Positions 1,848 through 46,264 of a stretch of 64,000 nucleotides of DNA are shown here, one piece after another. How positions within the stretch are numbered: the stretch's first letter is position 1; every line of letters begins with the position of its first letter. A model generated the notes under the pieces. The model had not been told where the DNA came from and ran no database searches. It saw nothing but the letters and a program-made list of their open reading frames with translations. The position numbers and the translations under genes were made by a program. Source of the DNA: an uncultured Planctomycetales bacterium (lineage in GTDB: Bacteria; Omnitrophota; Gorgyraeia; Zapsychrales; JAHFFX01); contig CAYJRN010000002.1 in NCBI GenBank assembly GCA_964372915.1, positions 65,409 through 129,408 on the forward strand. Direction: 5' to 3'.

Positions 1848-2849
1848 ATGGCTTTCTTTAAGTTGAGCTCAAATCACAATAGGATTTGGTTGAGAAGGTT
1901 TTCCAAACTCACCTGCTTCTCAACGCTTTTTCTTGTATTTGTAGGAGGCATGGTGACCAGTACGGGTTCTGGATTGGCCGTCCCTGATTGGCCGCTTTCC
2001 TACGGAATGCTTTTTCCTCCCATGGTCGGTGGTGTCTTTTATGAGCATGGCCATCGGCTGGTGGCTTTGGTCGTGGGATTTTTTATGTTGATTTTAGCCG
2101 TTTGGTTGGGGATAGCCGAGAGACGCCGCTGGGTAAAAAATTTAGGGTTTCTGGCCCTGGGCGCGGTTATCTTACAAGGAATCCTCGGCGGCATCACGGT
2201 TAAGTTCTTTTTACCCACAGCCGTTTCAGTTGCCCATGGGGTCTTGGCTCAAACATTTTTTATTTTGACGATTATTATTGCTTATAGCCAGTCGATGGAA
2301 CGCTCAAAACGCATTGGACACGCTGAGCTCGAAAATAACCTGGCGATAAAATTGAGTTTACTGCTGGTTTGCTTCATCTATGTACAACTTATCATTGGCG
2401 CTGTCATGAGACACACTCATTCAGGCCTGGCGATTCCTGATTTTCCAAGGATGGGAGGAAGTTTCTTCCCCCAATTCGATACCTCCATGCTTAAGAGAAT
2501 CAACCTCTGGCGGTTTGACAATAATTTGGATCCCGTGACCTTGGGGCAGGTCCTCATCCATTTTTTGCATCGATTATGGGCCGTGGCCATCTTAGGGTTA
2601 ACTGGATTTCTGGCGTTTTATATTGTGCAATCGGATTCTCCCATGAAAAATTTGAAGAGTACGGTTTTCTGGATGGGTCATTTGATCTGGGTGCAGGTGA
2701 TCTTAGGCATTCTTAGCGTCATGACGCAAAAAGCGCCCGTTATTACGAGTTCGCATGTGGCCATGGGGGCAGCCTTGTTGGGATTGAGCGTAGTGCTATC
2801 TTTACGTTTATCGCCGCTTTCCATAAAACGTTTCATAGAAACCATTTGA
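1848..2849 (+). CDS. ctaA: Heme A synthase (COX15/CtaA family)
   Basis: Signature GSGLAVPDWPL plus conserved His-containing TM helices. Polytopic membrane protein adjacent to ctaB. Confidence 0.8.
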   Translation: MAFFKLSSNHNRIWLRRFSKLTCFSTLFLVFVGGMVTSTGSGLAVPDWPLSYGMLFPPMVGGVFYEHGHRLVALVVGFFMLILAVWLGIAERRRWVKNLGFLALGAVILQGILGGITVKFFLPTAVSVAHGVLAQTFFILTIIIAYSQSMERSKRIGHAELENNLAIKLSLLLVCFIYVQLIIGAVMRHTHSGLAIPDFPRMGGSFFPQFDTSMLKRINLWRFDNNLDPVTLGQVLIHFLHRLWAVAILGLTGFLAFYIVQSDSPMKNLKSTVFWMGHLIWVQVILGILSVMTQKAPVITSSHVAMGAALLGLSVVLSLRLSPLSIKRFIETI

Positions 2850-2850
2850 A

Positions 2851-3720
2851 ATGAAGAAAAGTAACTCAGTACTATCCGCTTATATCGAATTGTCAAAACC
2901 CAGTATCTTGAACCTTATCCTGGTGACCACCGCCCTGGGATTCTTTTTAGGGGGGGAAGGCATTTCATCGTGGCCGCTTTTTTTAAATACGCTTTTGGGC
3001 GCGGCCTGTGTTTGCGCCGGAGCCTCGGCTTTGAATCATTATCTCGAGAGAGATTCTGATTGTAAAATGGTGAGGACAAGAAATAGACCCATTCCCGCGG
3101 GAATCATTTCTCCCCCGAATGCGATGAGTTACGGAATGATTATGATCCTAATCGGAGTTTTGATCTTAGTCGTCCAGGTTAATCTTTTAACCGCTTTTTT
3201 AAGTCTTCTGACGGCCTTTCTCTATGTGCTGGTCTATACCCCCATGAAAAAATTGAGCTGGCTGAATACCTCGATCGGGGCCATTCCCGGCGCCATTCCG
3301 CCGATGGGGGGATGGGCGGCCGCCACCGGCGAGCTTAACGCCGGCGCTTGGATCCTTTTTCTTATTTTATTTATTTGGCAGCATCCACATTTTTACGCCA
3401 TTGCCTGGATGTTCAAGGAGGATTACAAATCGGGGGGATTCAAAATGCTTCCCGTCGTCAAACCCGATGGCAAAGCGACCTTCGCCCAGATCAACGCATT
3501 CTCCTTACTCTTGATTCCGGTTTCTATGTTACCAACTGTCATTGGGATGTCTGGATGGTTTTATTTTTTTGGGGCATTGCTTCTAGGAATGATTCTGTGG
3601 TTGACCGGCAAATCCTTGCAGAAAAGCCGTTCTATCCTGGATGCCAGGAAACTCCTGCGCGCAACGGTTGTGTACTTACCCCTATTACTTCTTTTGATCG
3701 TCATCGACATGTCCTTTTAG
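2851..3720 (+). CDS. ctaB: Protoheme IX farnesyltransferase (heme O synthase)
   Basis: UbiA-superfamily prenyltransferase motifs (NHYLERDSD..M.RT..RPIP.G). Nine TM helices. Operon context. Confidence 0.85.
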   Translation: MKKSNSVLSAYIELSKPSILNLILVTTALGFFLGGEGISSWPLFLNTLLGAACVCAGASALNHYLERDSDCKMVRTRNRPIPAGIISPPNAMSYGMIMILIGVLILVVQVNLLTAFLSLLTAFLYVLVYTPMKKLSWLNTSIGAIPGAIPPMGGWAAATGELNAGAWILFLILFIWQHPHFYAIAWMFKEDYKSGGFKMLPVVKPDGKATFAQINAFSLLLIPVSMLPTVIGMSGWFYFFGALLLGMILWLTGKSLQKSRSILDARKLLRATVVYLPLLLLLIVIDMSF

Positions 3721-4755: not shown

Positions 4756-5096
4756 GTGGTTTCTTTAAGAGAAGCTTGTTCAGGCATTCTGAAAATTACC
4801 CGCCTAAAGGCTTTCGCCAATTGTTTCTGCCTTTTCCAAAAGAAGGAAAACTGCCCTAGAAGTGTCCCAAAGAAAAGCGTGGAAAGTTGATACAAGGGGA
4901 TAAAAACGCAGATGGAAACAACGATTTGAAGCCATAAGGGGGCGTGCCCCAAGCCCGTCAAAGCGAAAAGTAACCGACGAGAAAAGGCCGCGCCCATGCC
5001 GGCCATGGAATAGACCGTAAAAATAAGCGCCACATCCCAGTCGGAAGGGATGTCATATTTTATTTTGATCTTATTAACAAAGTTTCTTAGGGACAT
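4752..5096 (-). CDS. Hypothetical membrane protein (114 aa)
   Basis: ORF with 3 predicted TM helices. No family recognised. Confidence 0.4.
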   Translation of the reverse strand: MSLRNFVNKIKIKYDIPSDWDVALIFTVYSMAGMGAAFSRRLLFALTGLGHAPLWLQIVVSICVFIPLYQLSTLFFGTLLGQFSFFWKRQKQLAKAFRRVIFRMPEQASLKETT

Positions 5097-5124
5097 ATTG
5101 AACCTTTCCTGTAAATAACATTCC

Positions 5125-5246
5125 TAAAATACAAAGAATAAAAAGTATATTCCAAGAGCCAAAACGGCAACCGTCGTCAAGGCCAAGACGTAAATCATCT
5201 TCATAAAACCATCCGCACCGGTATCAAATTTAAGAATCGTCTTCAT
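5125..5246 (-). CDS. Possible tiny membrane protein (40 aa)
   Basis: Manual translation of the minus strand gives MKTILKFDTGADGFMKMIYVLALTTVAVLALGIYFLFFVF. It is below the ORF-track length cutoff and speculative. Confidence 0.15.
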
Positions 5247-5253
5247 GGGCTCT

Positions 5254-5415
5254 CTAATTTTTAAGCAAAATTTTTTGGATCATCCAACCGAAGAAAAAAA
5301 CAATGATCCCCGTCATTAAAACTTTTCGGCTCATTAAGCCGGGAAGCGAACTGACATATCCCAAGAGGATGATTGTGAGTCCCGTAGCTTGGGCGATTTT
5401 AGCCAAATAATACAT
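5254..5415 (-). CDS. Possible small membrane protein (53 aa)
   Basis: Manual translation of the minus strand gives MYYLAKIAQATGLTIILLGYVSSLPGLMSRKVLMTGIIVFFFGWMIQKILLKN. Below the ORF-track cutoff and speculative. Confidence 0.2.
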   Translation of the reverse strand: MYYLAKIAQATGLTIILLGYVSSLPGLMSRKVLMTGIIVFFFGWMIQKILLKN

Positions 5416-5420
5416 ATTTT

Positions 5421-5900
5421 TCAACAAGAATTTATTTTAGACATTTTAAGCACGGCCTCTGTGGTCGCCTTGAAAGATTCATGCTGGATCTTGATTGTGT
5501 ACAGGAAGTGAAGGAGGCACACCCAGTAGAAAAGGCCGTGAATCCAGCCCTTCAGATGTCCGGTATCAACCGCGCCACCGCTAATGAACAAAATGCTCAC
5601 CAGGGACATATTGAGAAGAAGCGGCGGGTAAAGCTTCATTTTGATAGCGAAGGACTGGCGGGTAAATTCATTCCCTAGTTTTCTTTCTTGAGAGTATTCC
5701 TTGATGCTCATTCCGATCCCCACAAAGAAAAACATGACGAGCGTTTCCGTAAAAAGATAAATGATCGTTGCCAGAAGTGCGAATGTTGCGTGGTTGGCAT
5801 TGAGGATTTTGAAAGGAAAATATCCTTGCGCTCCACTCAGAATGAGCATCCCAAACGAGAGGGCGGTGAGAAGATAACAGGAATTCATGAAAAACCACAT
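5421..5900 (-). CDS. Hypothetical polytopic membrane protein
   Basis: ORF 5421..5948 with 4-5 TM helices. Start is probably the internal ATG (MWFFMNS...) at 5900. Confidence 0.45.
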   Translation of the reverse strand: MWFFMNSCYLLTALSFGMLILSGAQGYFPFKILNANHATFALLATIIYLFTETLVMFFFVGIGMSIKEYSQERKLGNEFTRQSFAIKMKLYPPLLLNMSLVSILFISGGAVDTGHLKGWIHGLFYWVCLLHFLYTIKIQHESFKATTEAVLKMSKINSC

Positions 5901-5945
5901 CGTTGTTTTCCTTATTGACCTTTTTTTAAATACACATGAGGTAGT

Positions 5946-6003
5946 CAATATCTCGACGATTGTTATCTTGGGAAAACATTTTTTAGAGGAACAATCGTCA
6001 ATA
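5946..6003. repeat. Palindromic repeat family B, copy a (atatctcgacgattgttatcttgg ... agaggaacaatcgtcaata)
   Basis: Hairpin with about 14-bp arms, cgacgattgtt.tc and gaggaacaatcgtc. It is nearly identical to the copies at 34216-34264, 38170-38227 and 47522-47579. Confidence 0.75.
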
Positions 6004-6019
6004 GCTCAAGAAAGAGACG

Positions 6020-6376
6020 TCAAGATTTTGAGGATGCATGAAACGTTTCGGTGATCTGGATATTGAATAACTTCTCGACTTTTTCGGTAGGTTCCATACG
6101 AATGGCATCCCAGGTGAGCTTAGTGCAGACGCGAGCGCAAATCTGGCAGCCGATGCATTCGTTGTAGCGGATTTGAACCGGAGGGATGGGAATGTTAAAT
6201 TTTTCTTTAGGGGCAACTTCAATGCAATCCACCGGGCAAAAAGGTACGCAGGCTTGACAGCCCGTGCAGTTGTCGACATCAACGACCGCGAGCAGCTTAG
6301 GCTTTTTTTTCTTGGAAGTGATTTTATCAGGAAGTTCTGGGATAGTTTTGTAGAAACTACTCGATGGAGTCGCCAT
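6020..6376 (-). CDS. Ferredoxin, 2 x [4Fe-4S] (two CxxCxxCxxxCP motifs)
   Basis: CTGCQACVPFCP and CIGCQICARVC motifs. Confidence 0.75.
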   Translation of the reverse strand: MATPSSSFYKTIPELPDKITSKKKKPKLLAVVDVDNCTGCQACVPFCPVDCIEVAPKEKFNIPIPPVQIRYNECIGCQICARVCTKLTWDAIRMEPTEKVEKLFNIQITETFHASSKS

Positions 6377-6411
6377 AAAATTCTTTCAAAAACATCCTTT
6401 AAAAGAATTGA

Positions 6412-6696
6412 TTAAGTCTTGGGAGGCGCTAAAGGTGTTTTCTTTTCCGTAATGACCGGTAAGTTGGGAGATTTGGTTTTGTTGAGCTCAATGTAACTTT
6501 TCCATTTCTCCGGGACATCACTTTCAGCGTAAATGGCCTGGACGGGACATTCGGGAATGCAGGCACCACAATCAATGCAGACATCCGGGTCGATCACGAC
6601 CATTTCTGCATCTTCATGAAAGCAATCAACGGGGCAAACCGTAACGCAATCCGTATAACGGCATTTTATGCAAGGTTCGGCAACGATGTGAGCCAT
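6412..6696 (-). CDS. fdxA: 7Fe ferredoxin (FdxA type, [3Fe-4S][4Fe-4S])
   Basis: N-terminus [25 protein letters not shown]...[12 protein letters not shown] matches Azotobacter-type ferredoxin I. Confidence 0.8.
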
Positions 6697-6851
6697 TTCA
6701 AATTCCTCCGGGTGATGTTTTATGTAGTAATCTCAAAAACCGGTTTCACTATATCAAAGTCAAAAATATTTGTCAACATCCCATTTTGGTATTTTGTGAG
6801 AGAAAAAGTAATTTTCAACCCCTTTGGACTTGACATGAATCAAATCAGATA

Positions 6852-6880
6852 TTGACGGTAGAACACGGATTCTTTATAAT
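6852..6880 (+). promoter_or_regulatory. Sigma70-like promoter for acnA (TTGACG - 17 nt - TATAAT)
   Basis: Near-consensus -35 and -10 hexamers with a 17-nt spacer, about 58 nt upstream of the acnA ATG. Confidence 0.5.
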
Positions 6881-6937
6881 GAAAATCTCGTCCGGATCGA
6901 CATTTTTCCATCAGTTGGATTTCGTAAGAGCGCTAGA

Positions 6938-9646
6938 ATGAATTCAATTTTCAGTAATGAAGAAACTTGTAAGACCCTCAAAACGCAACAGGGGAGTTTT
7001 ACTTATTTTAAGATTTCAGAACTCAACAGGCTGGGAATTAAAGTTAATGAAAGGCTCCCCTTTTCGATCAAGGTCCTCCTGGAAAGCGCCTTGCGCAATT
7101 ACGACAATGATCAGGTGACCCTGACGGACATAGAAAGACTGGCTTCCTGGTCGCCTAAAACAACCCAACCTGCCGAAATCGCCTTCAAGCCTGGGCGTGT
7201 CATCCTGCAGGATTTTACCGGAGTTCCCTGCGTCGTCGACTTGGCTGCCATGCGTTCGGCGATGAAGAAAATGGGCGGGGATTATCACAAGATTAATCCG
7301 TTGGTGCCTTGTGATCTGGTCATTGACCATTCCGTGCAGGTGGACGCGTTCGGCTCCAGAGGAGCCGCGAAAATCAATGTGACCAAGGAATTCGAACGCA
7401 ACATCGAGCGTTATGAATTTCTCAAGTGGGGTCAACAGGCCTTCCGGAATTTCCGCGTCGTACCGCCGGCCACGGGCATTGTTCATCAAGTGAATTTGGA
7501 ATATTTGGCTAAAGGCGTTCTGCGAAAAAAATCCGCTAAAGAGATCGTCGTCTATCCGGACAGCTTGGTTGGCACCGACAGTCATACCACCATGATTAAT
7601 GGTCTGGGCATTGTGGGCTGGGGGGTCGGAGGCATTGAGGCCGAAGCCGTCATGCTGGGCGAACCCATTTATCTGTTGGTGCCGGAAGTCATCGGATTCC
7701 AATTGACCGGAAAATTGCCAGAGGGGATTACCGCGACCGACTTGGTTTTGACCGTGACCCAAATTTTGCGTAAAAAGGGCGTCGTCGATAAATTTGTTGA
7801 ATTCTTTGGCAGCGGGCTTGAACATTTGAGTTTACCGGATCGCGCCACGATTTCCAATATGTCACCGGAATACGGGGCCACCATGGGATTCTTCCCGGTG
7901 GATGAAGAAACCCTTAATTATTACAAACTCACGGGCCGAACTTCTCAAGAAGTCAATTTGATCGAGCGTTATATGAAGGCTCAAGGGATGTTTTATGACC
8001 CCAACAACGAGCCGGAATTTACGGATGTTCTGACGCTGGATCTTTCGGCCGTCACCCCCAGCCTCGCGGGCCCCAAGCGACCGCAGGATCGGGTCGCGAT
8101 GAGCGACATGAAATCCACCTTTGAAAAAGCTTTGGAAGCCCCTCTTGAAGAGCGCGGGTTTGGGTTAGAGAGAGCGGCCTTAAGGAATTCCGCGACCATC
8201 ACGAATGGTTCACCCGAAAAGATTTCCCACGGGTCCGTCGTGATCGCTGCCATTACCAGTTGCACGAATACTTCCAATCCATCGGTTTTAATCGGCGCCG
8301 GGTTGTTGGCCAGAAACGCCGTCCAAAAAGGTTTAAGGGTCAAAAGTTTTGTGAAAACAAGTTTCGCCCCGGGCTCCAAGGTTGTTGAAGAATATTTGAA
8401 AAAGGCCGGACTGCTTCCCTTTCTTGAGAAGCTGGGATTTTATATTGTCGGGTATGGCTGCACAACCTGCATCGGTAACAGCGGGCCGTTGCCGGAAAAA
8501 GTCGCGCAAGCCATCGAGAGTTCGAATTTGGTGGTGGCAAGCGTTCTGAGCGGCAACCGGAATTTCGAAGGACGCATCAATCCTTTGACGCGAGCCAGTT
8601 ATTTGGCCAGTCCACCCTTGGTTGTTGCTTATGCCTTGGCCGGCTCCGTGCATATTGATTTGACAAAGGAACCACTCGGCAAAGGCAAAAACGGCCAGGA
8701 TGTCTATTTGAAAGATATTTGGCCTTCGCAGAAAGAAATCAGCCGCCTCATCCTCAAAGTGGTCAAGGCCTCGCAATTCCGGGATCGCTACAAAGATGTT
8801 CTCAAAGGCAATAGCAACTGGAATAAAATCAAAACCGTGAAGTCCGATTTGTATGATTGGAAACCGCAAAGCACCTATATCCAGGAGCCGCCGTATTTTG
8901 AACAGATCAATGATCGGCCGGGGATTATCAAAGACTTAAAAGGAGCCAAAGTCCTGATGATGGTCACAGATTCCATCACGACCGATCACATCTCTCCGGC
9001 CGGCGACATCGCTTGGAATTCTCCCGCCGGACTTTACCTCAAAAGTCTGGGGGTAGATCCCGCGGATTTTAATAGTTATGGGGCTCGTCGGGGAAATGAC
9101 CGGGTGATGACCCGTGGGACGTTTGCCAATATTCGTTTGCGCAATTTTCTAGCGCCGGGCACGGAAGGCCCCTGGACAATGTATTTCCCGGAAAACAAAA
9201 TAATGACGGTGTATGATGCCGCGCAATTGTATAAAAAGAACCAGACGCCTTTGATTGTTCTGGCCGGGAAAGAATATGGGGCAGGTTCCAGCCGCGACTG
9301 GGCCGCGAAAGGGACGGCCCTCTTGGGCGTGAAGGCCGTTTTAGCCCAGAGTTACGAGCGCATTCATCGTAGCAATTTGGTGGGGATGGGCGTTTTGCCC
9401 CTCGTTTACACGTCGGGGCAAAACGCCCAGAGTTTAGGTTTGAAAGGCGACGAGACTTTTGATTTTCTGGGTCTCAGCTCTTCGATGAAACCCCGACAGG
9501 AGATCAAGGTTGTTGCAACGACCAATGACGGTTCCAAGAAAGAATTTAGCGCCACAATGCGCTTGGATACTCCCGTGGAGATCGATTATTACCGTAACGG
9601 CGGCATTCTGCCGACGGTCTTGCGTAAACTTGCCAAAAGCAAGTAG
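6938..9646 (+). CDS. acnA: Aconitate hydratase A
   Basis: 902 aa with aconitase family motifs ([17 protein letters not shown]) and Fe-S Cys ligands. Confidence 0.9.
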
Positions 9647-36281: not shown

Positions 36282-38111
36282 TTAGACAGCGGCAGGTATC
36301 AGCGAATCGCTAAAAATTTCCTTACGTTCATCAGTAAGCTCTTCTAATTTATTTTTAAAATCCATGAGCTCTTCAAACATTCTTTTCCGATATTCCTCGT
36401 TTTCCTCGATCAGCTTCGGAATGAGCGTGCGGTAATATTCAATCCCGTCAAAAATGTTTTTCTTAAACTCGCGGAAATATTCCTTTTGTTTTTCCGTTGG
36501 TTCAACGTGCTTCTGAATATCTCTGGCTAAATACTCGATGTACATCTTGAGCTCTTTGATGAACATATTGGGCCGATAAGTGGAGTTGAGGAGATTGACG
36601 CGGCCGTAAATATGACCGACCATTTCCGCCAGCGTGCAGATCTTTGAAAAGTAGGCGAGATTGGGGCCCGGGCAAACGGCGCTAAAGCGCTGAAACGTAT
36701 TTTTAATATTGTTCTTAATCATCGCCGGTTCGCCCAGGTCGTTACAGATGCAGGCCTTCATAATGATAGAATTGTAAAGCTTTCTAAACTGCTGGGGCTC
36801 GAGATTCATTTTGGCAATCTGGTCCAGTTTGAGCTTTTGATACTGACGGGAGGCCGTACAAATAGGTTCCGGGGTAAATTCGGTGTTGGAAACAAGATGG
36901 CCCTTGGGGCAGGCGCTTCCCGGGCGTCCGGTTTGGGCGCGGCGTTCTTTTTCTGCGTCGCTGCTGGAATCGCGGAGATTATTGAAAGGAACCCCTAAAG
37001 GAGAGACGTTGCTTAAATAAAGATCGTCTTCCCCGGCGGCGGCCAATTTTTTGAGCGTTACATCATCGACATTGGTCACTTCCGGACACAACAGAAACGG
37101 CGTGGCCCAACCGGTTCCATCCAATTGATAGTAGTTGAGCAAAAATTTATCTTCCTTAACCGTTCCGATGCCGCCCTGGGCGGTGATTTTCACATATGGG
37201 GGATTCAAGAAAGGAATTTTGTTCTTGAGCTTCAATGCCTCGTTGCACATCGCGTGCAGTGTCTCGATCAATTCCTTTTTCTTTTGTTTAAATTCTTCAA
37301 GAATAGGGCCCATCAAATAGCCGTCGGTGGCAAAGGCGTGCCCGCCGCAATTCAACCCCGATTCGACGCGGTATTCCGAAATCCACAGACCTTTTTTGGC
37401 AAAGAACTTTCCCTGGGTAATGGAGGAGCGAAAATCACTGACCTTGAGTATGATTTTTTTCTTGAGAAAACCCGCCGCGTCGGCATAAAAATCTTTAAAG
37501 TTTTCGACATAACTGTAAAGCCGGCGATTGATCCCGGCGGAGAAAACGATAGAAGAGTTGAGTGTGCTGTTGGCAAACCCGCGCAACGCCGCCAAGGCAT
37601 CGGAATATTCCGCGGGAAGTTCTTTGCCGTCCTTAGAATAGTTGGCCCGGTCTAACTTAGTCATGATGTTGACGTTGATGTCACCGGGACGAATCATCTC
37701 TCGCAATTCAGTTTGCAGTTGGGATTTTTTTGCGGGATCTTCGGTGGCGAGCATTGTTCGGTAGGAGAGTTTTAAAGGAGAATCATCGGCCAAAAGTTCG
37801 AAATATTTGGTGATTTCCGTCCCCGGCTCGAAAGCAGAAGTCTTTAAGGTTTCGAATTGATTTTTTACGATTTTATTCACTAAATTCAAGTAGGCGGTGA
37901 TGCGGCGGGCCCGGTAGTCCTCCTCATCCTTGGTGATGGCCTGATAAGGTTCTCCGGTAAGCACACAATAAAACTGGCGCATCTCCTCAACCAAGGTGTC
38001 GTCCACAAGGGAAATCACAGAAGAGATTCCGTATTTGGCGACCTTGATGGGAGTATCGATGGAGAAGGCAGTCCCCATAACGGGGATGTGAACTGAATGG
38101 ATGTTTTTCAT
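36282..38111 (-). CDS. Hypothetical FMN-type TIM-barrel protein (NMO/IMPDH superfamily-like) with a Cys-rich C-terminal extension
   Basis: Start MKNIHSVHIPVMGTAFSIDTPIKVAKYGISSV. Motifs NCGGHAF and ITAQGGIGT resemble the GGHRG and AAGGI.DG motifs of nitronate monooxygenase/FabK enzymes. About 230 extra C-terminal residues carry several Cys. Function unknown. Confidence 0.45.
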   Translation of the reverse strand: MKNIHSVHIPVMGTAFSIDTPIKVAKYGISSVISLVDDTLVEEMRQFYCVLTGEPYQAITKDEEDYRARRITAYLNLVNKIVKNQFETLKTSAFEPGTEITKYFELLADDSPLKLSYRTMLATEDPAKKSQLQTELREMIRPGDINVNIMTKLDRANYSKDGKELPAEYSDALAALRGFANSTLNSSIVFSAGINRRLYSYVENFKDFYADAAGFLKKKIILKVSDFRSSITQGKFFAKKGLWISEYRVESGLNCGGHAFATDGYLMGPILEEFKQKKKELIETLHAMCNEALKLKNKIPFLNPPYVKITAQGGIGTVKEDKFLLNYYQLDGTGWATPFLLCPEVTNVDDVTLKKLAAAGEDDLYLSNVSPLGVPFNNLRDSSSDAEKERRAQTGRPGSACPKGHLVSNTEFTPEPICTASRQYQKLKLDQIAKMNLEPQQFRKLYNSIIMKACICNDLGEPAMIKNNIKNTFQRFSAVCPGPNLAYFSKICTLAEMVGHIYGRVNLLNSTYRPNMFIKELKMYIEYLARDIQKHVEPTEKQKEYFREFKKNIFDGIEYYRTLIPKLIEENEEYRKRMFEELMDFKNKLEELTDERKEIFSDSLIPAAV

Positions 38112-38136
38112 TAATGTGTTGGGCCGTTTAAAAAGC

Positions 38137-38227
38137 CTTACTGGCTTTTTCTTTTTGTGGTAGCCAGTATCTCGACGGTTGTTTTCTTGGATGGATCTGC
38201 TATCTTTTGAGGAACAACCGTCAATAA
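38137..38227. repeat. Palindromic repeat family B, copy c, in the 5' leader of the minus-strand TIM-barrel gene
   Basis: cttactggctttttctttttgtggtagccagtatctcgacggttgttttcttgg ... gaggaacaaccgtcaata. The arms carry compensatory changes (cgacgGttgtt / aacaaCcgtc) relative to the other copies. Confidence 0.7.
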
Positions 38228-38455
38228 ATCGACCAACGGCTTGAATACAATCATATACCAATCTACCTAAAAGGCAAGGAAAATAATATCTATATTACTC
38301 GAACTTGGTAGGCTTGAAAAGACAGAAATATGAAAAATAAAACGCCTATTATTTGCTTTATGCAGGTTTTTGTACTAGAATATTCTAAAATTTGACATTT
38401 TTGAAGCTTAACCCCACGCTCCTCCTGTGCGTCGGAGCTTTGGGGTAAATTCCGG

Positions 38456-38498
38456 CTTACAACTTATGTCGCACCCTTTGGGCGCTCCATAAGTTGTG
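38456..38498. repeat. Hairpin family C, copy 1 (cttacaacttatg - 19 nt - cataagttgtg) in the bioB leader
   Basis: 10-bp perfect stem. The same stem sequence occurs at 62382-62419. Confidence 0.6.
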
Positions 38499-38516
38499 CC
38501 GTCATTTAAGGGATCC

Positions 38517-39626
38517 ATGAACCGTTCGTATTATTGTCAACTCGCAGAAAAATCGATTGCCACAGACACCCTTTCTTTCTCAGAGTCTTATGAAATCTTG
38601 ACTTCCCAAGATATCGAACTTTTGCCGCTTTTGGATGCCGCCTTTCAAGTGCGAAAAAAGTTTACAGGCAAGGAAGTTTCCGTCCATATCATTAACAATG
38701 CGCAAAACGGCTTTTGCCCGGAAGACTGTCATTACTGCGCCCAGGCTAAGACCTCAACAGCCGATATTGAAGAATATCCCTTAAAACCGGATCAGGAAAT
38801 ACTGGCGGAAGCCAAAAACGCTTATGAAAAAGGAGCTTTCCGCTATTGCATGGTGTTCGCTGGACGTGGGCCGTCGGCGCGGCGCGTGGAGCACCTGGCG
38901 AGATTGATCCGTGAAATTAAAGTTCGATACCCCATACAGATTTGTGTTTCGGCTGGGATCATGGATGAAGCCGCAACCCGCACGCTCAAAGAAGCCGGTC
39001 TCGACCGTTTGAATCACAACCTCAACACCTCCGAGCGTCATTATCCCAACATTTGCACGACCCACACGTATGAGGAGAGAATCAATACCCTCTTGGCGGC
39101 AAAAAAGGTGGGATTGGAAATGTGCTCAGGCATTATCGTCGGCCTGGGGGAAAAAGTCGATGATATTATTGAAGTGGGGATGAATTTAAGAAGATTAACG
39201 GCTCGTTCCATTCCGGTTAATTTTTTGATTCCCATTGAAGGCAATCAACTCAAAAAAATTACCAGCTTAACGCCGGAATATTGTTTACGAATTTTGTGTT
39301 TGTACCGTTTTTTAAATCCCGACTCGGAATTGCGCGCGGCCGCCGGACGGGAAGGCCACTTAAGGAGCCTGGAGGTGATGGCGCTGTATCCGGCGAATTC
39401 GCTCTTTTTGGACGGGTATTTGAACACCAAAGGTTCCAGCCGTGCCAAGACTTTACAAATGATCAAGGATGCCGGGTTTACCATCAAATCGGAATTTACC
39501 GTGGATGAAGTTTTAGAAAATGAAACTTTGCCCAAGACGGCTTACAGGGTTGACGACGGCCAAACATTGATGAAGGGACTTAAAGAATTACGACCGCAGT
39601 TGGAAGCTCAACCCACCAAAAAATAA
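38517..39626 (+). CDS. bioB: Biotin synthase (radical SAM)
   Basis: CPEDCHYCAQ radical-SAM motif. Auxiliary-cluster ligand contexts (YCMVFAGRG, ICVSAGIM, CSGIIVGLGE, AAGRE). RBS TAAGGGA precedes ATG 38517. Confidence 0.75.
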   Translation: MNRSYYCQLAEKSIATDTLSFSESYEILTSQDIELLPLLDAAFQVRKKFTGKEVSVHIINNAQNGFCPEDCHYCAQAKTSTADIEEYPLKPDQEILAEAKNAYEKGAFRYCMVFAGRGPSARRVEHLARLIREIKVRYPIQICVSAGIMDEAATRTLKEAGLDRLNHNLNTSERHYPNICTTHTYEERINTLLAAKKVGLEMCSGIIVGLGEKVDDIIEVGMNLRRLTARSIPVNFLIPIEGNQLKKITSLTPEYCLRILCLYRFLNPDSELRAAAGREGHLRSLEVMALYPANSLFLDGYLNTKGSSRAKTLQMIKDAGFTIKSEFTVDEVLENETLPKTAYRVDDGQTLMKGLKELRPQLEAQPTKK

Positions 39627-41472: not shown

Positions 41473-42370
41473 GTCCGCGCCACCCGCGAACATCAAAGAA
41501 TTAAATACGGAAAACCCGCGTTGGTGTATAGGTTGCGGTGATTTTGGAATCATCGCGGCGGTCAAACGTTTTATGGTCGATCAAAAAATTATCGCTGCCG
41601 ATACAGTGAACGTCTCAGGCATCGGCTGCTCGGGTCGCGCCCCTAACTATATCAACACCTACGGCGTACACGCGATCCACGGCCGCCCCATTACCGTCGC
41701 GACGGGATTGGCGCTGGCGCGTCCGGATATCAACCTTTTCGTCCATTCCGGAGATGGCGATGCGCTGAGCATCGGAGGGAACCACTTAATTCACGGTATC
41801 AATAAAAATTTCAAATGCGTTTTTCTTTTGTATGATAACGAACTGTATGCCTTAACGAAAAATCAAACGTCTCCGACGACCCGTAAGGATTATATGACGA
41901 ATACTCAACCCCTGGGAACCTATTTGGATCCGATCAATCCGGTTCGTCTCGCCTTAGGCTTAGGCGCTTCGTTTGTGGCAAGTACGACCGACTGGATGCC
42001 GGATCACTTGGCCAGCACACTCAACTTGGCTTTCCAACATCCTGGATTTGCTTTTATCCATATTTCCCAGCGTTGCCCGCATTTTGACCCGGAAAATTTT
42101 GACCACAAAACATCGTCCTGGTTCACCTTCCTCAAGCACCCCGACGGCATTGCTCCCGATAAACGCCTGGCCGATAAAACGGAGGCGATCGAGCACGATC
42201 CAACGAATCTCGAGAATGCCTTCAAGTATGCCAATGCCGAACGGCGTTATTTCGGGTTATTCTTTCAGGATAAAAAGAAACCGCGTTATGACGAAATCAT
42301 GCGCGGCCTTATTCACAAAGCCGAGCAGAAACCTCGCTCCAAAATTTTGGACAGATTCCAGCTGGAATAA
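41450..42370 (+). CDS. korB: 2-oxoacid:ferredoxin oxidoreductase beta subunit (TPP-binding, KorB)
   Basis: CIGCGDFG iron-sulfur motif and GDGD TPP-binding motif ([13 protein letters not shown]). Confidence 0.8.
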
Positions 42371-43311
42371 TGGAAAATGTCGTCATTATAGGATCCGGTC
42401 CGGCGGCGCACACCGCCGCCATTTACGCGGGCCGCGCCAAACTCAACCCTTTGGTGTTTGAGGGATTTTTGGCCGGAGGTGTCGCGGCCGGCGGACAACT
42501 CACCACAACTACCGAGGTCGAGAATTATCCCGGATTTTCCAAAGGAATTTCCGGTCCGGATTTAATGCTTCAGATGCGGGAGCAGTCGATCCACTGCGGC
42601 GCGCGCATCAAAACAGTCACGATTGACAGGGTAGACTTAAAAGTAAGGCCCTTCAAAGTGTTTGCCGGCTCAGAAAACCTGGAAACCAAAACCCTCATCA
42701 TCGCCACGGGTGCCACGGCTAAACGCATGAACGTTCCCGGAGAAGAAAAACTCTGGCAAAAGGGGATTTCCGCCTGTGCCGTCTGCGACGGGGCGCTGCC
42801 CATCTTCCGAAATAAAATTGTCGCGGTCGTGGGCGGCGGCGATTCTGCCGTGGAAGAGTCAACCTACATGACCAAGTATGCCCAAAAAGTTCTGTTGCTG
42901 GTGCGCCGGAACGCCTTGCGCGCTTCCAAGGCCATGCAGGAGCGCGTATTCGCCAACAAAAAAATCGAAGTTTTTTGGAATACGCTTCTCTTGGAAGTCA
43001 TTGGCGATAAATCCTTAACCGGTCTTAAAGTTAAGGACCTCAAATCCTCTCAAGAAAAAATCCTTGAGGCCGGGGGTTTGTTTTACGCCATCGGCCACCT
43101 GCCCAATACCGGCTTTTTAAACGGCCAACTGGAACTGGATGAGGCCGGTTACGTTAAAACCAAGCCAGGTACGACCTTCACAAACGTTGAGGGCGTCTTT
43201 GCCTGCGGCGATGTTCAAGACAAAGTCTATCGCCAAGCGGTGACCGCGGCCGGAACCGGCTGCATGGCCGCGCTGGACGCGGAACGATATTTAAGCCATT
43301 CCCACGCCTGA
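42370..43311 (+). CDS. trxB: Thioredoxin-disulfide reductase
   Basis: [18 protein letters not shown]-binding motif, redox-active CAVCDG, and NADPH motif GGGDSAVEE. Confidence 0.85.
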
Positions 43312-43341
43312 TCTTTTTGATTATTTTATTGTTACATATCC

Positions 43342-44292
43342 ATGCCTGAACCAATTGTTATAAAAATTCCTCAGTATTTTGTTCATCAGAATTTCGATTC
43401 GTTTTTACAACAGGTCAAAGTTCTTGAACCGGTTTTTAAAAATACACCGCAGGATGTTATTTTTGATTTTTCGGAAAATGAATACACATCTGTTTTAGGG
43501 GTTTTATTGCTCGCACAGGCTGCGGACCATTTTTCCAATTTACAATGTAAATCTTTAGTTCGTTCGATGGATGCTGAAAGAAGTAATCGACGGTGGTTTC
43601 TTCAAGTTATGGATTTTATAAAAGGAGATGACAGCAAGGAATTACAAAACTATTTTGATACCTTTCGAGTTCCAATACAACGCTGTTATCAGGAAAAAGA
43701 AGTCTACGAAGCTTTGAACAAAAGGTTAATCCCTTTAATCCGGAAAGAATTTAATCCACCGGAGCCAATCTTAAAAGCCATTAACTGGGTGTTGTGGGAA
43801 GCTATTGGGAATTCCATCGTGCATGGATATTCGATTGCAAATTATGAAGGAATGTATCCTTATCCAGTTTATTTCTGTGCCTTTTCCTATAAACAATCCA
43901 TAGATATTGCAATTTTGGATGTGGGACAAGGGATTCATAAATCATTGACGTCTATAGAAGAATATAAAAATTTTTCAAACGCTGATGCATTAAAATTGGC
44001 TATTCAAAATGGAGTTTCTGGTAGCAAAGAAGGAAGTCCCGGGTTCGGATTGTATGGCTCCGCTGAGATTGCAAAACAATCAAATGGGGAACTAATTATA
44101 ATATCCGGTGCTAGTAAATTGGTGTTGCAAAACAGTGTGCTAACTTTGGAAAGTTCTTCTTATTATCAAGGGACTATGTTACAATTAACCATTCCTGCAG
44201 GGATTAATCTTGATTTGGCCCAAATATTTGGCCAAGGACATTTGATGACTACTGAAGATACTGATACATTAATGGGTAATTTTGATGAATAA
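43342..44292 (+). CDS. GHKL-type ATPase (histidine-kinase-like ATP-binding fold) with an N-terminal STAS-like region
   Basis: N-box-like EAIGNSIVHG, D-box ILDVGQGI and G-box GSPGFGLYG. The N-terminal roughly 150 aa resembles anti-sigma antagonist/STAS folds. Sits in an AT-rich segment. Confidence 0.5.
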   Translation: MPEPIVIKIPQYFVHQNFDSFLQQVKVLEPVFKNTPQDVIFDFSENEYTSVLGVLLLAQAADHFSNLQCKSLVRSMDAERSNRRWFLQVMDFIKGDDSKELQNYFDTFRVPIQRCYQEKEVYEALNKRLIPLIRKEFNPPEPILKAINWVLWEAIGNSIVHGYSIANYEGMYPYPVYFCAFSYKQSIDIAILDVGQGIHKSLTSIEEYKNFSNADALKLAIQNGVSGSKEGSPGFGLYGSAEIAKQSNGELIIISGASKLVLQNSVLTLESSSYYQGTMLQLTIPAGINLDLAQIFGQGHLMTTEDTDTLMGNFDE

Positions 44293-44608
44293 TAGAGAAA
44301 TTGAAACTATAAAGCTTTCAGAATTCGGTTCTTCATTGGGAACGAGAGAACTGGGGCGAAAAATTAGGGAAGATGTATTGTCTCGAGTGCGCGAACAAAA
44401 ACGTGTTCTGGTTAATTTTAAAGGCGTTCATATTATTTCGAGCGCTTTTGCTGATGAGATATTTGGTAAGCTTTTTATAGATTTGAAGGATTCTAAGTTT
44501 AAGGAGAGCATTAAGATTAATGGGTTTGATAACGAAGAAGACAAGAATTTAATTCTTTTGATTATCCAAAAAGCAATTGACTTCAGAAAAAGCAATCAAG
44601 ATGGTTAG
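44282..44608 (+). CDS. STAS-like small protein (DUF4325-like) partnered with the GHKL ATPase
   Basis: 108 aa. Overlaps the 3' end of the upstream ATPase, which suggests translational coupling. STAS-like pattern (KRVLVNFKGVHIISSAFADEIFGKL). Confidence 0.4.
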   Translation: MMNNREIETIKLSEFGSSLGTRELGRKIREDVLSRVREQKRVLVNFKGVHIISSAFADEIFGKLFIDLKDSKFKESIKINGFDNEEDKNLILLIIQKAIDFRKSNQDG

Positions 44609-44742
44609 TGGTTATACAACGGATCAAAATTGGCAATCATTTTGTATGGCAATAGTGGATCACCTTTTCAGGCTTTAGGAGAAGCTTTTTATTTTCAAAA
44701 TAAATTTTGTGATAGTTCATTTGGTCGAGAAAGGAGCCATCC

Positions 44743-45147
44743 ATGATAAAAAGGGTTTTAATTTTTGTTTGTTTTTTATTTTTTCTTGGTTGTTCCACAG
44801 CTAGTTCTCATCGTCAGCAAGTAAAAGATGATAAGGGGGACAGGCTGACTGTTGGCAAAGTACAAAGAGAAATACGCATAGGGATGCCATCTTCTCAGGT
44901 TATTGAAGCCTTGGGGTCTCCTAATGTCGTTTCAACAGATGAAAACAGATTAGAGGTTTGGATTTATGACAAGATTGCCACAGATGTGTCTTATTCCAAT
45001 AGCGAAGGAGGCGTTTGGCTTATACTTGGAAGTGTTGGTGGTTCTTCGGGAACAACTTCAACTTCCCAGAGAACATTAACGATAGTGGTTAAATTTGATG
45101 CGGATAAAAAAGTCAGAGATTTTGCATATCATTCCTCCAGCTTCTAA
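44743..45147 (+). CDS. Lipoprotein, BamE/SmpA-OmlA-like
   Basis: Lipobox FLGC. Motif LTVGKVQREIRIGMPSSQVIEALGSPNVVSTDENRLEVWIY resembles the BamE fold signature. Confidence 0.45.
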   Translation: MIKRVLIFVCFLFFLGCSTASSHRQQVKDDKGDRLTVGKVQREIRIGMPSSQVIEALGSPNVVSTDENRLEVWIYDKIATDVSYSNSEGGVWLILGSVGGSSGTTSTSQRTLTIVVKFDADKKVRDFAYHSSSF

Positions 45148-45160
45148 AAGTGAAAGTAGA

Positions 45161-45721
45161 ATGACAAAACAACATTGCTATTTTAGATGGTTACCCTTGC
45201 TGACGTTATGTGTTGGAATTGTAGGCTGTGAAACTACTCCAAATGGGTTTCTTAAGTCCTCAGAGGCGTATTTGCAAAAACGTCAACTCGAGATGAGACA
45301 ATACGATACCAAAGATGAGACGAAAATTCTTTCCTCGGTTGCCGGAGTTCTTCAAGATTTAGGTTTTACATTAGATGAAAGCGAGACCGAATTAGGTTTA
45401 GTGGCAGCTTCAAAAAAGGCTGATGCAAAAGATGGGGGTCAAATGGCAGGGGCTTTTTTTCTTGATGTCTTAGCTGCCCTTGGAGGGTCAGGTGGAAACG
45501 CCATGGCAACTGTAGATAAGTATCAGCATGTTAAGGTTTGTGTTGTTACAAAGTCTAGCCAAGATACCAATAAGACGGTTGTTCGAGTGACTTTTCAAAG
45601 AATTGTTTGGAATATGAGTAATCAAATAAGTCGGGTAGAAACAATAAATGATCCGCAAATATACCAAAAATTTTATGATAACCTATCGAAAGCCATCTTC
45701 TTAGAAGCTCAGCAAATATGA
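45161..45721 (+). CDS. Lipoprotein of unknown function (paralog 1)
   Basis: Lipobox IVGC (start chosen at MTKQH). Shares a C-terminal motif with the downstream gene: LQDLGFTLD...YQKFYDNLSKAIFLEAQQI versus MQDLDFVID...YQDFFIALEKALFLTAQQV. Confidence 0.45.
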   Translation: MTKQHCYFRWLPLLTLCVGIVGCETTPNGFLKSSEAYLQKRQLEMRQYDTKDETKILSSVAGVLQDLGFTLDESETELGLVAASKKADAKDGGQMAGAFFLDVLAALGGSGGNAMATVDKYQHVKVCVVTKSSQDTNKTVVRVTFQRIVWNMSNQISRVETINDPQIYQKFYDNLSKAIFLEAQQI

Positions 45722-46146
45722 AAAACTCAGTCCGTTACATGCTTTCAATAAGTATGTTTTGTGTGATTCTCGTTGGGTGTGCGACGACTACGGGAAAAGC
45801 GTTTGAAACCAATGAAAGCCAAGTTAAGTTGAGAGCAATGCAAACCAGGACATTTGATACTAACGATAAGAAAAAGATGATGCAGACTGTGATCAGCACA
45901 ATGCAGGATTTAGATTTTGTTATCGATAAGGCTGATTTTCTCCTTGGCTCAGTGAGTGGGACAAAATTTACAGGAAATGCTATTGTTCAGATGACCGTCA
46001 CAGTGAGGACCCGGGGAGAAAAGCAACTTTTGGTTAGGGCTAATGCACAATACGGCATTCAGTCAATTGAAGATGCGGCTACGTATCAGGATTTTTTTAT
46101 AGCGTTAGAAAAAGCTTTATTTTTGACAGCACAACAGGTGGATTAA
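45718..46146 (+). CDS. Lipoprotein of unknown function (paralog 2)
   Basis: Lipobox LVGC. Tandem paralog of the preceding gene. Confidence 0.45.
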   Translation: MKNSVRYMLSISMFCVILVGCATTTGKAFETNESQVKLRAMQTRTFDTNDKKKMMQTVISTMQDLDFVIDKADFLLGSVSGTKFTGNAIVQMTVTVRTRGEKQLLVRANAQYGIQSIEDAATYQDFFIALEKALFLTAQQVD

Positions 46147-46264
46147 AAAAATTCCTAGATTCAACCCCTGCCCCAGTAACTAGCTTGAAAAGCATTCATT
46201 GACTCCTTCCTTCACAAGCCTTTTGAAATATGTTAAGATGTCGCGTATTTTTTATACCTCTTTC

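Follow-up and report, generated by a model that had tools for sequence, protein, structure and literature searches.

A putative two-gene phospho-switch of the VapK/VapS kind beside a lineage-conserved lipoprotein operon in an AT-rich stretch of a bacterial genome

The window, the whole 64,000-nucleotide stretch of DNA analysed here, contains five AT-rich genes between trxB and ubiE/menG, the latter coming after lipoprotein 3 (Table 1). GC content is 37.2% in positions 43312-46198 and 48.0% in the window as a whole, and no other 2,887-bp stretch of the window is as low. Thus the sharp drop between trxB and menG reported in the first-pass annotation, an earlier reading of the letters alone, is borne out by computation, and GC is not uniform. 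Against a baseline of 40 background genes (GC 0.493 ± 0.027, GC3 0.565 ± 0.050), the first gene, K, has a GC of 0.356 and a GC3 of 0.287 (z -5.1 and -5.5, respectively), the second gene, S, has values of 0.336 and 0.315, and the three lipoprotein genes have a GC of 0.39-0.40 and a GC3 of 0.30-0.41 (z about -3 to -5). All five open reading frames are real, run in one direction with tight spacing and share the low GC and GC3. K starts 30 nt past the trxB stop, within a co-directional string of housekeeping genes.

Table 1. Features of the AT-rich stretch and its upstream neighbour (positions in the window).
Feature	Position	Strand	Remark
trxB	42370-43311		upstream neighbour of K
K, 316-aa STAS + GHKL serine-kinase-like protein (VapK-like)	43342..44292	+	
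N-terminal STAS-fold domain of K, about residues 5-90	43354..43611	+	contains Y48
GHKL (Bergerat) kinase domain of K, about residues 110-300	43669..44241	+	
S, 107-aa DUF4325 STAS-like protein (VapS-like)	44285..44608	+	candidate phospho-acceptor S53
Lipoprotein 1, 134 aa, weakly BamE-like	44743..45147	+	first gene of trio
Lipoprotein 2, 186 aa, signal peptide + lipobox IVGC	45161..45721	+	second gene of trio
Lipoprotein 3, 142 aa, lipobox LVGC	45718..46146	+	third gene of trio

Pfam scans of the flanking genes, from about 31.8 kb to 57.8 kb, identified Hel308-like, ThiC, BioB, KorAB, TrxB, MenGFDBACE, aquaporin and SOD proteins, with one 658-aa open reading frame lacking any Pfam match. The pair of K and S (43342-44608, hereafter K-S) therefore sits in housekeeping surroundings and not in a defence island. 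The earlier annotation had seen in it the logic of an anti-sigma kinase and an anti-anti-sigma factor with neither a sigma factor nor a PP2C phosphatase nearby, and the same scans were indeed empty of both domains. A VapC-like PIN protein used as a tblastn query had no match within the window. Searches for flanking repeats or insertion scars around K-S returned only short AT-rich chance matches, and the window holds no tRNA gene that could serve as an integration site. Rfam gave a single sub-threshold chance match in the region, the predicted folding of the spacer between S and lipoprotein 1 is no stronger than that of shuffled controls (z 0.14), and the promoter and terminator scans gave no signal above shuffled controls, with no terminator found between trxB and K.

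The lipoprotein trio (44743-46146) is an ordinary, lineage-conserved Omnitrophota operon, unrelated to K-S and AT-rich by coincidence. Lipoprotein 2, whose true start as read from the sequence is ATG 45161 (186 aa, and not the 208-aa open reading frame), has more than 3,349 homologs, with identities of 60-74% among the matches listed; every listed homolog that bears a taxon name belongs to Candidatus Omnitrophota/Omnitrophica, and it is from these homologs that the host is assigned to Omnitrophota. Pfam assigns it to no family. Orthologs of lipoprotein 1 (62-78% identity) lead the same trio in other Omnitrophota genomes, at three loci (L035, L036 and L039/L040) from which K-S is absent, and lipoprotein 3 has orthologs of 71-81% identity in L035, L036 and L039. 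Conversely, the trio never lies beside K-S in the other K-S loci compared. An "empty site", with trxB joined directly to the trio, was not found, the three other trio contexts all being non-syntenic. In L036 too the trio is AT-richer than most of its neighbours, so low GC may be characteristic of this family as such. As had been proposed, lipoproteins 2 and 3 are paralogous (BLASTP E 3e-16, together with their alignment). The BamE-like character given to lipoprotein 1 is weak, the resemblance falling below threshold both in Pfam (a match of just 27 residues scoring 21.5 bits, where the gathering score is 23.2) and in NCBIfam (17.8 bits against 93).

The sequence of K predicts a GHKL serine kinase of the SpoIIAB type that carries a STAS domain of its own at the N-terminus. 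The Bergerat boxes recognised earlier in the 316-aa protein are real: they comprise an N-box (E153/N157/H161, with the N157 codon at 43810-43812), G1 (D193xGxG197), G2 (G234xG236L) and G3 (G277-T278). Across 18 clade members these residues do not vary, and of 117 superfamily representatives at least 113 keep each of them, a figure that rises to at least 116 for eight of them (E153, N157, D193, G195, G197, G234, G236 and G277). The best structural matches of K are SpoIIAB and RsbW. The check by profile searches that the earlier annotation had proposed came out differently for the two proteins, with DUF4325 matching S above its gathering score (E 1.1e-10, the sole Pfam match of S) and HATPase_c matching K below it (E 0.005); the NCBIfam model TIGR01925 (spIIAB) gave K 22.1 bits against a cut-off of 135. 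Nothing significant was retrieved when the K profile was run against the sequences of solved structures.

No domain other than STAS and GHKL was found in K. Strand beta-1 of the STAS domain begins at residue 5 and Pfam gives no HTH match, so that K has no N-terminal HTH. Within this domain, Y48 (codon 43483-43485) aligns with VapK F54 by hhalign; 13 of 18 clade members have an aromatic residue or His in this column, and an aromatic residue is absent from it in 5 of the 18. Ser50, also in the STAS domain, was considered as a general autophosphorylation site and rejected: conservation of at least 90% is confined to the close clade, and the corresponding column in the 117 superfamily representatives holds Ser in 38 and a gap in 31. 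The STAS domain of K and S are not demonstrably paralogous, since hhalign gave no significant match between the N-terminal domain of K and the S family.

For S, the earlier description of a translationally coupled STAS-like protein stands in its fold and in its overlap with K, but the length is 107 and not 108 aa, the start at ATG 44285 being favoured over TTG 44282 by gene callers and by our own reading. From this start, S shares 8 nt with the end of K, at its stop (ATGAATAA), an overlap through which S is translationally coupled to K. The AF2 model of S (pLDDT 92.9) has a STAS fold with one terminal helix and neither a C-terminal wHTH nor any other DNA-binding domain. Foldseek of this model against the PDB gave weak STAS matches (best E 0.037, TM about 0.5), the PDB copy probably being older than the VapS entry. 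The S profile does match PDB 9z7o_A ("Escherichia VapS") at E 7e-6, with S66 of the chain (native S48) aligned with S53. The S53 codon lies at 44441-44443; S53 adjoins S52 and both are invariant in 16 homologs, with the acceptor position shifting by ±1 in more distant S proteins. The profile alignment stops at S residue 102, equivalent to VapS native residue 96, with 5 S residues beyond it. Relative to VapS, about 15 C-terminal residues are missing from S, and with them most of the VapC-blocking tail.

The closest characterised relatives of the pair are CapK/CapS and VapK/VapS/VapC, which were described and biochemically tested by Chambers et al. (EMBO J 2026; PMC13373217), with ssDNA-dependent activation of the kinase and anti-phage protection demonstrated or supported for Escherichia and Enterobacter proteins only. 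VapK/VapS forms an anti-phage switch that senses DNA damage, in which VapS is a STAS antitoxin and VapC a PIN toxin (PMC13373217). In these systems ssDNA activates the kinase, a serine of the STAS protein is phosphorylated and a partner is released, a sequence of events shown for CapKS and supported for VapKSC; the STAS protein, not the kinase, bears the output in both (PMC13373217). VapK F54 is the proposed ssDNA-stacking residue, its F54A change abolished defence, and VapS S48 is the experimentally required acceptor, at a Ser/Thr position that is absolutely conserved (PMC13373217). CapK/CapS-type regulators control the operon downstream of them (PMC13373217).

Of the two, VapKSC is the nearer. 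By hhalign, the K profile matches Escherichia VapK (sequence taken from the AF3 file of that paper) with a probability of 91.9% and E 6.9e-7 over both domains, and K and S match their counterparts in a Deinococcus plasmid K-S-PIN operon at E 4.8e-8 and 4.4e-9, respectively. The link to VapK/VapS in sequence is thus remote (E 1e-6 to 1e-9). Like K, VapK consists of STAS and GHKL without an HTH and is directly followed by a small STAS protein; the catalytic motifs are intact in K, including the N-box Asn and T278, the acceptor is kept (VapS S48 corresponding to S53) and the F54 position is aromatic (Y48). In VapKSC, however, a vapC/PIN gene lies directly downstream, whereas here the next gene encodes a lipoprotein and no PIN gene was found in the window or beside the cassette in clade relatives, and the VapS C-terminal helix that blocks VapC is the part of which S falls short. 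CapK/CapS follows the same logic, a STAS-GHKL kinase beside a STAS-domain substrate, but the N-terminal HTH of CapK is missing from K and the C-terminal wHTH of CapS from S, and CapK/CapS sits upstream of a repressed immune operon, whereas K-S is followed by the lipoprotein trio and men genes, with PADLOC detecting nothing among the genes downstream. Comparison with Enterobacter CapK and CapS by hhalign was not significant (E 0.045 and 0.14). The K profile also retrieves HTH-STAS-HATPase proteins (P0178). None of the checked taxa with K-S-only cassettes appears in the capKS or vapKSC datasets of PMC13373217. A single "Alicyclobacillus" match in the data of that paper is a different species, in a Bub-operon table.

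We next consider the distribution of K-S. Close homologs of the pair number only 20, counted at cluster level among 5.8 billion proteins, while an exhaustive search with the K profile retrieved about 1,800 cluster representatives of the kinase. Both genes are intact in the window, as they are in about 25 related loci (38-73% identity). Conservation is slightly higher in S than in K (mean column identity 64% and 58%, respectively). Linkage is obligate: S directly follows K in the fetched clade loci with downstream sequence, the starts overlapping or abutting, and the exceptions to an intact pair are a frameshifted S (L010) and a locus with a K fragment only (L014). Natural K-S fusions occur in 11 of the 149 top superfamily representatives and in a Nostoc plasmid protein. 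All-against-all comparison of neighbours over about 20 non-redundant loci revealed no shared third gene, and no PIN gene was found in about 14 independent contexts of this clade. Loci that share flanking genes, or that have an HTH_3 gene adjoining the cassette, were the exceptions in the neighbour comparison.

The neighbourhoods of K-S are diverse and include housekeeping operons, a type III R-M system, a helicase-nuclease, RHS/Imm genes, TA genes and an integrase. Cassettes are found in Clostridioides, Marinitoga and Bacteroides phages (GenBank phages), in the inserted fragment IFa of the archaeal prophage psiM100 and on an Alicyclobacillus plasmid; the cassette also occupies prophage accessory slots beside integrases. 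A scan of IMG/VR with the K profile found no relative. With three exceptions among the loci compared, K is richer in AT than the locus around it, as in Deinococcus (0.29 compared with 0.57). A 90-nt repeat flanks the cassette in the closest relative (L021), but neither the window nor the other loci contain it. K-S is a rare, patchy, accessory and horizontally mobile pair, and the two-gene form is stably maintained and extends to plasmids, temperate phages and an archaeal prophage. The AT-rich "island" is therefore composite, joining this accessory pair to the lineage-conserved lipoprotein operon. The proposal that the whole stretch was a horizontally acquired accessory module is thus correct for K-S, in view of its foreign composition, its 20 homologs, its unrelated neighbourhoods and its presence on plasmids and phages, but not for the trio, a conserved operon that occurs without K-S.

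Our combined findings point, with moderate confidence, to K-S as a self-contained mobile two-gene phospho-switch of the VapK/VapS (CapK/CapS) kind. By analogy with these systems the switch is probably triggered by ssDNA. K would remain idle until ssDNA, arising through DNA damage or as a phage or plasmid replicates, enters a groove between the STAS and kinase domains, where Y48 lies. Active K would then phosphorylate the serine at the N-terminus of helix 2 of S, namely S53 or possibly S52, and phosphorylated S would let go of a partner held by the unphosphorylated form. Since the cassette has no toxin gene, and S has neither a DNA-binding domain nor most of the VapC-blocking tail, we infer that the partner released or switched by S is a protein encoded outside the cassette. 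More tentatively, K-S-only cassettes may form an autonomous, widespread two-gene system of bacteria, archaea, temperate phages and plasmids, in which ssDNA would activate the kinase, the kinase would flip a free STAS protein, and the latter would act on a conserved target, cellular or viral, that is encoded outside the cassette. If so, these cassettes would represent a new output class for the CapK/VapK family and might serve as a defence or superinfection-exclusion device, or as a DNA-damage sensor that times prophage induction.

Alternatively, K itself may be the effector, K-S being a two-gene toxin-antitoxin or abortive-infection pair in which S serves as a pseudo-substrate or inhibitor of K. 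On triggering, K would either phosphorylate essential proteins of the host or phage or tie up a host factor in the way that SpoIIAB sequesters sigma F. The conserved unit without any other gene, the prophage accessory slots beside integrases and the structural kinship of K with anti-sigma factors that bind a second partner besides their STAS antagonist are all consistent with this. However, the output lies with the STAS protein in both characterised relatives, K has nothing beyond STAS and GHKL, and the slightly better conservation of S fits a second interface on S; we therefore consider an effector kinase unlikely. That K-S is the functionless remnant of a VapKSC operon that lost its vapC toxin could explain why its nearest characterised relatives are three-gene K-S-PIN operons, why S is about 15 residues short, and the damaged copies in L010 and L014. 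This is highly improbable given that both genes are intact here and in the roughly 25 other loci with all catalytic and acceptor residues kept, that evidence of purifying selection is strong, that none of about 14 independent clade contexts holds a PIN gene and that cassettes of two genes turn up repeatedly, in phages, on plasmids and in an archaeal prophage.

The structural matches to SpoIIAB and RsbW, the weak NCBIfam spoIIAB match and the position 30 nt past trxB in a co-directional housekeeping string would also suit an ordinary chromosomal partner-switching pair, like RsbW/RsbV or SpoIIAB/SpoIIAA, whose host sigma factor is encoded elsewhere. K differs from these kinases in the extra STAS domain fused to it, as in VapK and CapK, and fails the curated spoIIAB model (22 bits against 135). 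The pair differs further in being mobile, with relatives on phages and plasmids, AT-rich, with a GC3 5 standard deviations under that of host genes, and extremely patchy, having 20 homologs where the lipoprotein next to it has more than 3,300; and no sigma-factor or PP2C domain was found by Pfam in the flanking genes scanned. Such a pair is thus improbable. Lastly, the 2.9 kb could be one acquired functional module, in which K-S would control the lipoprotein operon in the manner of Cap regulators, which do act on a downstream operon. All five genes are co-directional, tightly spaced and low in GC and GC3, but K-S is missing from at least three further genome contexts of the trio (L035, L036 and L039/L040) and is nowhere else accompanied by it, S has no DNA-binding domain, and the composition of the trio, AT-richer than most neighbours in L036 too, may belong to the family. 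We regard a single module as very improbable.

The CapK/VapK family was defined in 2026 from two architectures, one with a repressor output and one with a PIN-toxin output (PMC13373217). The effector-less K-S cassette of the window, taken with the roughly 25 related loci and the phage and plasmid examples, shows a third form beside them. The idea that the locus encodes an uncharacterised signalling or defence system thus holds in so far as its characterised relatives act in phage defence, but systems of this kind had already been described. The family is also larger than catalogued, with about 1,800 kinase cluster representatives here compared with roughly 730 operons so far. If the two-gene form is functional, S or K must act on something outside the cassette, and this target, once found, would add to what is known of immune and stress signalling triggered by ssDNA. 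The locus further cautions that an accessory cassette and a lineage-core operon can lie side by side within one compositional island.

K-S also matches the PADLOC model of the DISARM protein DrmA (PDLC02567), K at model positions 29-247 and S at 313-394. Since K and S match successive N-terminal positions, the model begins with a fused K-S module. Identification of K-S as DrmA was rejected: only about 395 of the 1,750 model positions are covered, and the helicase core and the partner genes of DISARM, including drmB and drmC, are absent. Matches of K-S proteins through this fused module may thus give rise to false DISARM calls.

The adjacent kinase/STAS gene pair 3' of trxB (K-S), which encodes K, a STAS and GHKL kinase-like protein, and S, a small DUF4325 protein, is an accessory, mobile two-gene cassette, since its neighbourhoods vary, copies lie on plasmids, phages and prophages, and it is AT-richer than its hosts. 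Among 5.8 billion proteins, a word-indexed search returned only 20 homologs of K (38-65% identity) and 17 of S, the named ones belonging to Candidatus Omnitrophota and Margulisiibacteriota MAGs. With a HMMER profile, an exhaustive search gave 1,825 cluster representatives of K below E 1e-3, of which 329 were below E 1e-10; those among the matches listed mostly have 300-320 aa. In fetched clade loci having sequence downstream of K, S lies directly 3' of K with overlapping or abutting starts, and 11 of the best 149 K representatives are natural K-S fusions. The genetic coupling of the two, natural fusions included, is obligate, with two exceptions that both show signs of decay: a Margulisiibacteriota contig (L010) in which a frameshift splits S and leaves K intact, and an Omnitrophota MAG (L014) that retains a K fragment and no S.

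The neighbourhood comparison proposed in the first-pass annotation, a reading of the sequence alone, found S kept beside K in surroundings that differ between loci. All-against-all comparison of neighbouring ORFs at ~20 non-redundant loci revealed no common third gene, apart from loci sharing flanking genes or an HTH_3 gene adjoining the cassette. The settings are heterogeneous: the cassette variously separates CdhD from RACo, neighbours a glucanotransferase or SpoU/Maf, adjoins an RHS toxin, a PLD nuclease, HTH_3 plus a helicase-nuclease or a PIN/RHH TA pair, accompanies the immunity genes Imm50 and Imm-NTF2, precedes HTH_3 and type III R-M genes, or follows a tyrosine recombinase. Pairs or relatives are carried by the Alicyclobacillus plasmid pAACI02 (adjoining IS elements), a Nostoc plasmid (as a fused protein) and Deinococcus gobiensis plasmid P5 (as a K-S-PIN operon). 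Pairs without an effector gene (K-S-only) are found in Clostridioides phage ES-S-0173-01, Marinitoga phage MPV1, near an integrase gene, and Bacteroides phage BF1-TP2, and K-S homologs ORFB/ORFC lie in "inserted fragment IFa" of the Methanothermobacter prophage psiM100. With three exceptions among the loci compared, K has a lower GC content than the remainder of its locus, and the gap reaches 28 percentage points (GC of 0.39 versus 0.52 in Margulisiibacteriota, 0.40 versus 0.56 in Alicyclobacillus and 0.29 versus 0.57 on the Deinococcus plasmid). The accessory nature originally proposed for the pair is thus borne out by patchy homologs, mixed contexts and mobile-element copies.

Coordinates of the features discussed, in the window and in fetched comparison loci (L numbers).
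Feature	Locus	Positions	Description
K gene	window	43342-44292 (+)	316 aa
K Ser50 codon	window	43489-43491	
S gene	window	44285-44608 (+)	107 aa; most likely start
Lipoprotein trio	window	44743-46146	
Lipoprotein trio	L035	6585-7986	
Lipoprotein trio	L036	6646-8055	
Lipoprotein trio	L039	5563-6969	
AT-rich patch	window	38000-38600	GC 0.38-0.42
AT-rich patch	window	5001-7000	GC 0.38-0.42
Unassigned ORF	window	36282-38261 (-)	658 aa
Split S	L010	8948-9281	
K fragment	L014	6694-7095	133 aa
K-S, HTH_3, type III R-M	L030	7426-12630	
Direct repeat	L021	1-90 and 2157-2246	90 nt
ORFB/ORFC	L044 (NC_002628.3)	2177-3308	psiM100

In the window, the sharp fall in GC reported between trxB and menG is large and is confirmed by computed GC and GC3. 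The GC content of positions 43312-46198 is 37.2%, compared with 48.0% across the 64-kb window, and is the lowest among window stretches of equal length. Against 40 background genes (GC 0.493 ± 0.027, GC3 0.565 ± 0.050), K has a GC of 0.356 (z -5.1) and a GC3 of 0.287 (z -5.5), S has 0.336 and 0.315, and the three lipoprotein genes 5' of menG (the trio) have 0.39-0.40 and 0.30-0.41, their GC3 lying 3-5 standard deviations under host genes. All the ORFs named in the first-pass annotation are present, with the starts of S and lipoprotein 2 corrected: S most likely begins at an ATG that overlaps the K stop by 8 nt (ATGAATAA), and lipoprotein 2 begins at ATG 45161 and encodes 186 aa with lipobox IVGC. 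Two more AT-rich patches occur in the window (see table). Pfam scans show housekeeping flanks: upstream lie a Hel308-like helicase, ThiC, BioB, KorAB and TrxB, and downstream lie MenG/F/D/B/A/C/E, an aquaporin and SOD. The same scans detected no sigma-factor or PP2C domain in flanking genes, in agreement with their absence as first noted, and no Pfam match for a 658-aa ORF. No further copy of K or S was found in the window.

The trio, which consists of a weakly BamE-like lipoprotein and two paralogs without a Pfam family, had been counted in the same accessory module as the pair; this does not hold, as the trio occurs without K-S and K-S occurs elsewhere without the trio. A profile of the two paralogs found more than 3,349 homologs, with 60-74% identity in the 120 listed, and all taxon-named homologs among the matches listed were Candidatus Omnitrophota or Omnitrophica. 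The three-gene operon is present without K-S in other Omnitrophota genomes (CP070684.1, JAZDFF010000031.1 and two ENA contigs); its proteins are of 134 aa, about 185-207 aa and about 133-144 aa, and its surroundings differ from one examined genome to the next. The trio is therefore a lineage-typical operon, and the bacterium that carries it here probably belongs to Omnitrophota. None of its three genes was found at other K-S loci. It is AT-richer than most neighbours in L036 and compositionally undistinctive in the low-GC loci L035 and L039; the trio and K-S may have been jointly acquired from a low-GC relative.

K folds as a SpoIIAB-type kinase, and its catalytic residues are intact. In its predicted structure (pLDDT 78, pTM 0.81), a beta-alpha-beta-alpha-beta-alpha domain at the N-terminus (about residues 5-90) is followed, after a linker of low confidence, by a Bergerat-fold domain (about 110-300). 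Matches to curated models were weak (Pfam HATPase_c, E 0.005; Pfam STAS, E 0.19; NCBIfam spoIIAB, 22 bits against a cut-off of 135). Nevertheless, the ATP-binding boxes recognized initially are borne out by conservation across the superfamily, with E153, N157, D193, G195, G197, G234, G236 and G277 kept in at least 116 of 117 representatives, H161 in 113 and T278 in 107. S passes the Pfam DUF4325 ("STAS-like domain") model at E 1e-10, which upholds its assigned identity; its predicted structure is confident (pLDDT 92.9) and gave only weak STAS matches in Foldseek. S52 and S53 are both invariant among homologs, and by its sequence S is a putative STAS substrate that has kept its acceptor serine. 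The partner-switching logic ascribed to the pair is right. Ser50 of K caps the N-terminus of helix 2 in K's own STAS domain, where STAS antagonists are phosphorylated. Its conservation is 90% or more within the close clade; beyond that the residue is often replaced, and just 38 of the 117 superfamily representatives have Ser there. The superfamily also includes an 838-aa protein (P0144) with two tandem GHKL regions and a C-terminal DUF4325 domain, and HTH_17-STAS-HATPase proteins of CapK architecture (P0178, 344 aa).

The description of CapK/CapS and VapKSC in 2026 has overtaken the view of this system as uncharacterised (Chambers et al., EMBO J 2026, PMC13373217). CapK (HTH-STAS-GHKL), once activated by ssDNA, phosphorylates CapS (STAS-wHTH) on a conserved serine and so takes the repressor off DNA; for VapK (STAS-GHKL) the proposed target is VapS S48, whose phosphorylation would free the PIN toxin VapC (PMC13373217). 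Phage protection was lost with VapK F54A, VapS S48A or VapC D28A, each alone (PMC13373217). Using the Escherichia VapK sequence from those authors' AF3 model file, the K profile aligned over both domains (hhalign, residues 33-282, probability 91.9%, E 6.9e-7), with K Y48 opposite VapK F54. The S profile matched PDB 9z7o ("Escherichia VapS") at E 7e-6, with S53 opposite VapS S48 (chain S66), and the Deinococcus K-S-PIN operon matched K at E 4.8e-8 and S at E 4.4e-9. Homology of K and S to VapK and VapS is thus evident from sequence comparison, whereas Enterobacter CapK and CapS gave no significant match. Unlike VapS, S stops ~15 residues earlier and so lacks most of the VapC-blocking helix, and a VapC-like PIN protein as tblastn query had no match anywhere in the window. 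The published vapKSC list is restricted to loci having all three genes (PMC13373217); none of the K-S-only taxa searched for is in its capKS or vapKSC supplementary lists, and the single "Alicyclobacillus" entry, in the Bub-operon table, is of another species. The K-S-only form is new relative to known kinase-STAS systems.

By analogy with tested relatives, ssDNA would bind near Y48 and activate K, active K would phosphorylate S53, or S52, and phosphorylated S would let its partner go. This partner is most likely encoded outside the cassette, because S has neither a DNA-binding domain nor a toxin partner. The main rival makes K itself the effector: it would be a toxin kinase or would sequester a target in the manner of an anti-sigma factor, and S would inhibit it. 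Conservation of K-S makes a functionless remnant unlikely, and a classical host sigma-factor switch is unlikely in view of the distribution, base composition and architecture of the pair. That the pair controls the lipoprotein genes next to it is also unlikely, as S has no HTH and the trio is present without K-S in other Omnitrophota genomes. The biochemical logic is already known; the widespread effector-less form and its output are a real, testable question.

In PADLOC, K and S match only the first ~395 of 1,750 positions of the "DrmA" model PDLC02567. Each of the nine K or K-S fusion proteins examined matched positions about 25-395 (E 3e-7 to 1e-37); two distant S proteins had no match, unlike the window S. 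The N-terminus of this model is a fused K-S module, and since K, S and fusions match it, some DISARM helicases carry such a module. It is both a link to DISARM helicases and a source of false DrmA calls.

Several individual loci have further features. At L030, a 63-aa HTH_3 gene lies 3' of K-S along with a type III R-M system whose Res subunit (1,053 aa) has a C-terminal Peptidase_S24 (LexA-like) domain, which would be a second DNA-damage-type sensor at one locus. At L008, an HTH_3 gene 83% identical to that of L030 lies after K-S and before a 1,191-aa helicase-nuclease. IFa distinguishes the archaeal prophage psiM100, and its ORFB/ORFC are said to resemble MTH315/MTH316; one phage K-S homolog (in the set L044, L041, L042 and L037) is annotated as a "putative anti-sigma factor". 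In L021, the closest cassette relative (K 62% and S about 72% identical), a direct repeat found neither in the window nor in other loci brackets a small TM ORF, K and S. Its copies are 98% identical, carry a terminator-like hairpin and may mark the cassette boundary.
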